The notes beneath the pieces were generated by a model. The model searched no databases and was not told where the DNA came from. It saw only the letters and a list, made by a program, of their open reading frames with translations. From the NCBI RefSeq assembly GCF_058153355.1, contig NZ_CM177019.1: a stretch of DNA of 64,000 nucleotides. One strand, written 5' to 3'. This document shows, piece after piece, positions 11,585-11,850 of this stretch. The position numbers were made by a program, and so were the translations under genes. Position 1 is the first letter of the stretch, and each line of letters opens with the position of its first letter.

Positions 11585-11850
11585 GATTGCCTGATGCGAC
11601 GCATGCGCGTCCTGTCATGCCTCCGGGCATTGCGCATATCGCATCTGGCGATTTCCGTCGCTTACCCTAAATCCGCCATCAACACCTTTGATTTGATGTA
11701 GGTCGGATAAGGCGTTCACGCCGCATCCGACGATGAGCGTCAATACCTGATGCGATGCTAGCGTGTTTATCATGCCTCCAGGCATTGCGCATGTCGCATC
11801 TGGCGATTTCCACCACTTACCCCAAATCCGCCATCAACACTTTGGATTTA
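11585..11850. repeat. REP (BIME-like) cluster plus an imperfect ~110-bp direct repeat; the second copy contains the argA 3-prime end
   Basis: Canonical REP palindrome gtaggtcggataaggcgttcacgccgcatccgac at 11698-11731; degenerate REP-like arms at about 11590-11625 and 11735-11777; block 11585-11698 aligns with 11735-11850 at high identity. Confidence 0.7.

Follow-up and report, generated by a model that had tools for sequence, protein, structure and literature searches.

A direct duplication in the recD–argA spacer of Escherichia coli carries a REP pair and a relic of the argA 3′ end

Kilobase duplications have reportedly been formed by recombination between two distant REPs, which leaves a hybrid REP at the join. 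Studies have shown that the copy number of BIMEs varies between bacterial strains (PMC3333891). In vitro, TnpA_REP needs GTAG, cleaves TGCC/TGAT, GCC/TAC and C/T sites in the linker (the slash marks the cut), and can also cut at a distance and make recombinants with extra REPs (PMC3333891). REPs located less than 16 nt from a stop codon are reported to stall ribosomes and lower translation (Liang, Rudd, Deutscher 2015, as related in PMC12306157). In this study, we believed, with a probability of about 70%, that the recD–argA spacer described here is the non-coding relic of one old local tandem duplication, which took place in a spacer that was itself an ancient REP pair (BIME).

In the window (the whole stretch of DNA analysed, 64,000 nucleotides), the E. 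coli genes recD (+) and argA (−) are convergent, both are intact beside the duplication, and the gap from stop codon to stop codon is 236 bp. This spacer holds three REPs and two truncated REPs in total. Elsewhere in the window, Rfam matches at gathering level were found for the CsrB sRNA (+, 43093–43452) and the GcvB sRNA (−, 24707–24912), and Rfam also placed two adjacent tRNA genes on the minus strand at 20200–20383; all of these are ordinary for this chromosomal region. The features of the locus are as follows.

9754–11580, plus strand: recD coding sequence, an open reading frame with TAA stop at 11578–11580, named recD in the near-identical locus L001.
11581–11588, no strand: 8-nt lead-in ACGTGATT from the recD stop to the first REP, like the 3′ part of a BIME linker.
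11589–11624, plus strand: Z(a), z-type REP in iREP orientation, GCCTGATGCGACGC...CATGCCTCC, with the CTAC tail mutated to CTCC.
11625–11649, plus strand: dY(a), a gap and the 3′ part of a truncated y REP (…CGCATCTGGC), an inverted repeat, compared with the full y REPs of L010 and L016.
11650–11661, no strand: 12-nt spacer, copy 1, GATTTCCGTCGC.
11662–11697, minus strand: non-coding relic of the argA 3′ end (stop and 11 codons), 30/36 identical to the true tail.
11698–11731, plus strand: y-type REP with 5′ GTAG at the novel joint, an inverted repeat, in the naRNA4-like match 11701–11776.
11732–11744, no strand: 13-nt short linker of the BIME kind, GATGAGCGTCAAT, from the y REP to the z REP.
11745–11779, plus strand: Z(b), second z-type REP in iREP orientation, with the 3′ end CATGCCTCC in common with Z(a).
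11780–11804, plus strand: dY(b), second copy of the truncated y REP.
11805–11816, no strand: 12-nt spacer, copy 2, GATTTCCACCAC.
11817–13148, minus strand: argA coding sequence, GTG start at 13148 and stop at 11817–11819; the source of the relic is 11817–11852.

The repeat search found 90% identity over 80 nt between 11615–11694 and 11770–11849, and 74% identity, with the register shifted by one base, between 11577–11610 and 11733–11766. The local alignment of 11577–11697 with 11733–11852 had a score of 76, and the control scores were 8.0 ± 1.3 for 2000 shuffles (maximum 15) and 8.2 ± 1.4 for random pieces of the window (maximum 16). The initial annotation had described two similar blocks at 11585–11698 and 11735–11850; these exact blocks had a global identity of 79% (95/120 columns), and the observation is confirmed. 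An identity at the level of random background, which had been named beforehand as the refuting outcome, is ruled out (76 versus 8 ± 1.4). The results showed that the duplication is real and statistically secure, and that it is in direct order: the ancestral spacer unit and the last 36 nt of argA are present twice, and each copy consists of an old REP pair (z-type REP and truncated y REP), the 12-nt spacer and the argA tail. The similarity of the left ~30 nt was also considered as a relic of the recD stop region, and this was rejected; the motif GATGAG..AATGCCTGATGCGATGC there is a generic BIME linker followed by a z head. The same motif recurs in the array of E. whittamii, and the same 13-nt geometry is found in the K-12 mutT-yacG BIME. 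Because GATGAG..AATGCCTGATGCGATGC recurs within the E. whittamii array, the left ~30 nt are not unique duplicated sequence.

A canonical REP had been placed between the two blocks, and the perfect 34-nt y REP GTAGGTCGGATAAGGCGTTCACGCCGCATCCGAC was found there at 11698–11731. It is not the only REP, however, because each block opens with a z-type REP of its own (11589–11624 and 11745–11779), which gives three REPs. The second block holds the argA stop (−, 11817–11819) and the last codons as had been annotated, and the reading of the first block as a decayed copy of the argA terminus agrees with the 36-nt relic at 11662–11697, in which 30 of 36 positions match. The duplication had been said to include the argA 3′ end; the tail was copied, but the unit is larger and comprises the entire recD–argA spacer together with the argA tail.

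The y REP GTAGGTCGGATAAGGCGTTCACGCCGCATCCGAC occurs once in the window and is identical to one y REP of the K-12 mutT-yacG BIME. Its palindrome pairs 11702–11715 with 11718–11731 and forms a hairpin in the folds of both strands, and GTAG stands at its 5′ foot (11698–11701), as PMC3333891 defines y REPs. Queries containing the y REP matched a median of 9 places per genome, as expected of dispersed extragenic copies. In both z REPs, the head GCCTGATGCGACGC and the palindrome are present, and the 3′ foot reads CTCC instead of the expected CTAC; related z alleles with CCTAC were found in E. whittamii and MOD1-EC7003. Judged by these bases, the z REPs at 11589–11624 and 11745–11779 are decayed members of the family, and their assignment to the z2 or the z1 subtype is one of resemblance only. 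The 81-bp alleles of E. coli, E. albertii and Escherichia sp. MOD1-EC7003 contain the orthologue of Z(a), and the head of Z(a) pairs with the end of dY(a) to give the spacer hairpin. The 5′ half of Z(b) in the window is like that of generic BIME z REPs.

The y REP at the joint is followed by the canonical 13-nt BIME linker, and the region 11698–11779 has the BIME-2 geometry of a y REP (+), a 13-nt linker and an inverted z REP, as in the K-12 mutT-yacG BIME. The linker at 11732–11744 has the length of the K-12 mutT-yacG y–z linkers and is near-identical to the internal linkers of E. whittamii. The copy-number variation of BIME-2 was also observed, from one truncated REP pair to three REP-pair units across Escherichia. 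The unit departs from a BIME-2 made only of REPs and linker or flanking motifs, because the 36-nt argA relic and the 12-nt unique spacer lie inside it. The Rfam model naRNA4 (RF02564) matched 11701–11776 with 54.6 bits (+, E 3e-8) and 35.7 bits (−) against a gathering threshold of 59.5, and the gathering-threshold scan of the whole window returned no naRNA4 match. The K-12 mutT-yacG spacer (L022, 135–375) contains two BIME units of y REP, 13-nt linker and z REP, with an AT-rich 33-nt segment between them, and its second y REP is 100% identical to window 11698–11731.

A total of 5426 complete E. coli genomes were compared. Because short alleles also reached 80% coverage of the long-allele query, the duplicated form was counted by junction-specific queries. 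It was found in ~130 of the 5426 genomes (~2%) and was absent from ~97.6%. The lengths of the recD–argA spacer in E. coli were 61, 81, 143, 234 and 237 bp. The 61-bp spacer was present in most genomes (K-12, O157 and others) and the 81-bp spacer in a sizeable minority. The order in the 81-bp allele is recD stop, z REP, truncated y REP, 12-nt spacer and argA stop, and this layout is the ancestral spacer type. The 61-bp form is the 81-bp form with an internal deletion of 20 nt, through which z head and y tail come to form a single long hairpin. In a K-12 derivative (L005, 432–492, set beside window 11586–11652), the hairpin of the 61-bp spacer is followed by UUUUCAU on the recD strand, with predicted energies of −25 and −33 kcal/mol on the two strands; in this folding model it looks like a bidirectional terminator-like hairpin that may derive from a collapsed BIME. 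The MG1655 feature table, which may not include REP features, lists nothing in the 61-bp spacer.

The window-type duplicated allele was present in ~97 genomes, including APEC O2-211, which is an ST117 strain (PMC6256689). An identical 234-bp version, the L018 type, was present in 33 genomes, including the ETEC strains 120899, ETEC-2265 and TW10722 and the O178:H19 strain 2012C-4431 (ETEC/STEC type). The two types align end to end and have the same architecture. A third architecture of 143 bp was found in one genome, the baboon isolate PapRG-04-4 (L019), with the order 61-type hairpin, spacer, relic, y REP, spacer and argA, and without the linker or the second z REP. At 11633–11640, the window reads GCGCATATCGCATC, and the 60 window-type genomes listed have an additional G there, GCGCATATGCGCATC, and match the window at 99.7% identity, none of them exactly. 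This G near 11636 is also missing from L018, E. albertii and other alleles, as in the window. Because no listed genome is exact there, the window strain either lies outside the complete-genome set or has kept an older state. No precursor allele was found in E. coli at query coverage of at least 80% with the L010-like query (z and full y without the relic) or the whittamii-like query. An 86-nt query from copy 1 matched one place per genome in all 3432 genomes matched at megablast sensitivity, and no relic-bearing unit was found at a second chromosomal site in these genomes, so that the unit does not behave as a mobile element.

The initial annotation had suggested a comparison with orthologous spacers, and this gave an allele series across Escherichia in which the recD–argA locus is a BIME hot spot. 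The 81-bp type was found in E. albertii NBRC 107761 and Escherichia sp. MOD1-EC7003. In "E. coli" SCPM-O-B-8794, a z REP and a full y REP abut the 12-nt spacer. The 286-bp spacer of E. whittamii Sa2BVA5 (L016) consists of three near-identical tandem units without the argA relic; each unit has a z REP, a 10-nt gap, a y REP and a 13-nt linker, which makes a textbook BIME-2-like array. The metagenome contig JFBN01359691.1 (L020), whose flanks are E. albertii-like, repeats the order z, dY, spacer, relic, y and linker at 433–795, and TRF reported a period of 139 nt, 2.5 copies and 85% matches; the relic there is shortened to TTATCCGCCATCAACACCTTTGATTTTTC. The spacer signature of the window, CATGCCTCCNGGCATTGCGCAT, had 0 matches in a search of one genome per species. 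A degenerate 29-nt pattern of the argA tail also matched a Clostridiales MAG contig (L012), which is unlike recD or argA, and this was a chance match.

All relic-bearing alleles have a common joint, in which an argA tail of equal length, …TTT(T)ACG, runs directly into TAGGTCGG of the y REP. In each of these alleles (window type, L018 type, PapRG-04-4 and E. albertii-like contig), the y REP meets the joint precisely with its 5′ GTAG end, and the base triplet before the joint is ACG in PapRG-04-4, CCG in L018 and ATG in the window. The relics also carry changes of their own. A G of the real argA sequence CACTTTGGATTT is lost, and this change was not in any real argA examined; CACCTTTGATTT is present in the relics of the window and the E. 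albertii-like contig and likewise in no real argA examined. The relics of L018, L019 and L020 have the common lost G and are frameshifted. The shared joint and the relic-specific changes point to a single old event rather than recurrent ones, and we read the alleles as descending from one old duplication, rare in E. coli and present also in an E. albertii-like genome, which would have been remodelled later.

The two copies in the window have the derived states CCTCC, CATCTGG and ATTTCC in common. In L018, only 6 mismatches separate the copies; copy 1 of the window and copy 1 of L018 differ at 12 sites, and copy 2 of the window differs from all others at 15–20. Since derived states are common to both copies within a genome, we infer that gene conversion may have acted between the copies, and also with other BIMEs. 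The truncated y REP occurs in unduplicated alleles of two species; either it would predate the duplication, or the short alleles would be collapsed long ones.

Beside the long alleles, the flanking sequence is more divergent than usual. In the window, the final 400 nt of argA had 13–17 differences to other E. coli, against 3–9 among those others, and 6 of its 9 private argA sites are in the E. whittamii state. The private recD sites of L018 are clustered 25–37 nt before the stop and have outgroup states. The divergence at the gene ends was 3–4% in argA for the window type (11817–12216) and 5–7% in recD for L018 (13–212). Such flanks suggest that the long-allele haplotype either is old or has passed from one lineage to another by recombination. 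The lineages that carry the two E. coli versions are apparently unrelated, again with unusually divergent flanks, and this distribution requires either an old polymorphism or transfer by recombination.

We speculated that illegitimate recombination or a template switch joined the argA tail to the foot of the y-REP hairpin, while the other side may have been anchored by z-REP homology. Such joining would produce a direct duplication and leave both genes intact. Once two copies were present, unequal crossing-over could amplify the unit, as in the E. albertii-like contig with its 2.5 copies, parts of it could be deleted by pop-out or slippage (PapRG-04-4 and possibly many short alleles), and gene conversion could homogenise or diversify the copies. 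Neither a z–y–linker–z allele without the relic nor a full y–spacer–tail–y allele was found as a clean precursor in the E. coli genomes searched. The initial annotation had proposed a footprint of REP-associated recombination; this agrees with a joint that meets the y REP at its GTAG end in every duplicated allele, but the event is an old polymorphism and not a recent, strain-specific one.

The predicted folding was strong on the plus strand (−97 kcal/mol, z −5.6) and the minus strand (−98.3 kcal/mol, z −3.2). A consensus scan of 11300–12100 on both strands found no intrinsic terminator or promoter, and after the hairpins the window reads UUUCC, without the U tract that directly follows the GC-rich hairpin of a Rho-independent terminator. 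From the recD stop to the start of the spacer hairpin the distance is 5 nt in the window and 4 nt in K-12. It is possible that this hairpin damps recD translation in all alleles, and, by analogy with other REPs, the 3′ termini of the two convergent mRNAs (recD and argA) may be protected by the hairpins. The stabiliser or terminator role that the initial annotation had put forward would be one of REPs in general; strong folding is what the present analysis shows. The readable frame of the window relic is the result of an insertion–deletion pair, and TCA AAG occurs in no Escherichia argA. The three differences in the first 33 nt of the relic are synonymous, and two functional argA alleles were considered for this reason; this was rejected because L018, L019 and L020 show the insertion–deletion pair. 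Small ORFs on the minus strand (11615..11785 and 11679..11816) were also discarded, as they are in no record's annotation and are not conserved between alleles. We believe that the duplication is probably neutral, and nothing indicates an added function of the extra ~155 bp.

Other explanations of the structure were weighed. There is practically no chance that the similarity reflects REP-family resemblance or an assembly artefact without a true segmental duplication. The left ~30 nt (11577–11610 versus 11733–11766, 74%) would fit resemblance, being a generic BIME linker and a z-REP head, but the 70-nt core includes unique non-REP DNA (the 12-nt spacer and the argA tail) at 90% identity, the alignment score is 76 against a control maximum of 16, and the structure is present in ~130 independent complete genomes and one metagenome contig. 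This reading is already refuted by the core identity, the alignment score and the genome counts. It also seems improbable that the extra ~155 bp are a selected functional element, such as an extended recD or argA 3′ UTR with a stabilising or terminating effect on transcripts, a nucleoid-associated naRNA4-like RNA or a small ORF. The strong predicted structure of both strands, the match of 11701–11776 to the naRNA4 (REP325-derived) model (54.6 bits, E 3e-8), the persistence in two species although direct repeats should be deleted easily, and a window relic that still reads as an argA C-terminal peptide of 10 residues would support such an element. However, the naRNA4 match falls short of the gathering score (59.5) and is explained by the y–z REP content, no promoter-like or terminator-like site was found, and ~97.6% of E. 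coli genomes do not have the unit. There are also many indels between alleles, and L018, L019 and L020 carry frameshifted or truncated relics. The relic frame is without a start codon, a TGA lies just before it within the REP, and no gene is annotated at the relic by PGAP.

A RAYT origin of the joint is unlikely, though less so than a selected function. It supposes that the RAYT (TnpA_REP), bound to the GTAG y REP on single-stranded DNA, cut a distant C/T site in the argA tail and transferred the strand, and it predicts an inserted y–linker–z doublet (REPIN/BIME) and a long flanking duplication. The exact coincidence of the joint with the GTAG end of the y REP in every allele, the in vitro need for GTAG, distant cutting and extra-REP recombinants (PMC3333891), the left limit of unique similarity near a TGCC/TGAT-like site (ATTGCC/TGATG, 11586–11595), and the 5′ half of Z(b) in the window, which is more like a generic BIME z REP than like Z(a), are consistent with it. 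The sequence comparison, with cleavage sites from PMC3333891, showed that the joint abuts the GTAG or CTAC tetranucleotide and is 4 nt off the predicted TnpA_REP product: an AAC/TACC cut in argA and a GACC/TAC cut in the y iREP predict GACC/TACCAGCGTAAA, but GACCTACGTAAAA, four bases shorter, is observed. In addition, single-strand transposition of the IS200/IS605 type leaves no target duplication, Z(b) of L018 has locus-specific bases in common with Z(a), as expected of a segmental copy, and the z REPs here have no intact CTAC or GTAG. We regard as possible, though less likely than not, that the long allele was made in a divergent Escherichia and imported into E. coli by homologous recombination, so that the haplotype is introgressed. 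This would explain the rarity and the patchy distribution, and it fits the argA differences of the window (13–17 versus 3–9, with 6/9 private sites matching E. whittamii), the outgroup states of the private recD sites of L018 25–37 nt before the stop, the same architecture in the E. albertii-like contig, and the separate strain sets (ST117 APEC versus ETEC and O178:H19). Against it, the window spacer signature was in no outgroup representative (0 matches), and the flanks are still E. coli-like, with 16–43 differences to outgroups and 13–17 to other E. coli. Introgression concerns the place of the event and not the nature of the structure, and it is compatible with the old local tandem duplication that we prefer.

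Read from its sequence, this old tandem duplication is best seen as an old BIME polymorphism, restricted to some lineages and with a 36-nt argA relic inside it, and as an instance of known variation. It should have little weight for the physiology of the cell, since both genes are intact and 97–98% of E. coli strains do without the structure. The embedded piece of argA coding sequence is an unambiguous marker of common descent, which lets the expansion, collapse and homogenisation of a BIME locus be followed, and the window-type allele is usable as a lineage marker (the ST117 strain APEC O2-211 is among its carriers). We speculated, with considerable doubt, that a BIME array can take up neighbouring unique DNA where a REP has its GTAG boundary and amplify the captured piece within the unit, which then persists as a presence/absence polymorphism in E. 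coli and E. albertii. If TnpA_REP had made the joint, it would be an in vivo footprint of RAYT strand transfer at a distance, which is so far known in vitro only.

The locus can be set beside several described systems. The spacer hairpins of the window and K-12 are within the range given for stop-proximal, ribosome-stalling REPs in PMC12306157, but the closeness to the recD stop holds for the 61-bp, the 81-bp and all other alleles and is not specific to the duplication. Region 11701–11776 aligns to the full 77-nt model of naRNA4/REP325 (RF02564), a y–z2 BIME unit, at 54.6 bits, below 59.5. Similar to the REPs at tandem-duplication joins (Shyamala, Schneider, Ames 1990, EMBO J), a REP is at the novel joint of a direct duplication; in contrast to those joins, the unit here has a length of ~155 bp, and on one side the joint borders unique coding sequence and not a REP. 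The inverted doublet of y REP, linker and z REP resembles REPINs and RAYT-associated elements (Bertels and Rainey 2011, PMC3116915; Ton-Hoang 2011, PMC3333891), and the GTAG on which TnpA_REP binding depends is present in the y REP. Unlike these elements, the unit is at one locus per genome with no sign of movement, no transposition footprint comes near the length of the flanking duplication, and the junction is unlike the predicted cleavage products. The locus also resembles BIME-2 and atypical BIMEs, in which y and z2 REPs alternate (Gilson, Bachellier, Hofnung; in Ton-Hoang et al. 2011, PMC3333891) in its alternating y (GTAG-first) and inverted z REPs with a 13-nt linker, in its extragenic position between convergent genes, in a unit number that varies by strain and species at one locus, and in the likeness of the tandem copies at that locus. 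It differs from BIME-2 in that the z REPs are without the CTAC tetranucleotide and the repeat unit contains 73 nt of non-REP DNA, namely the truncated y REP, the 12-nt spacer and the 36-nt argA piece.
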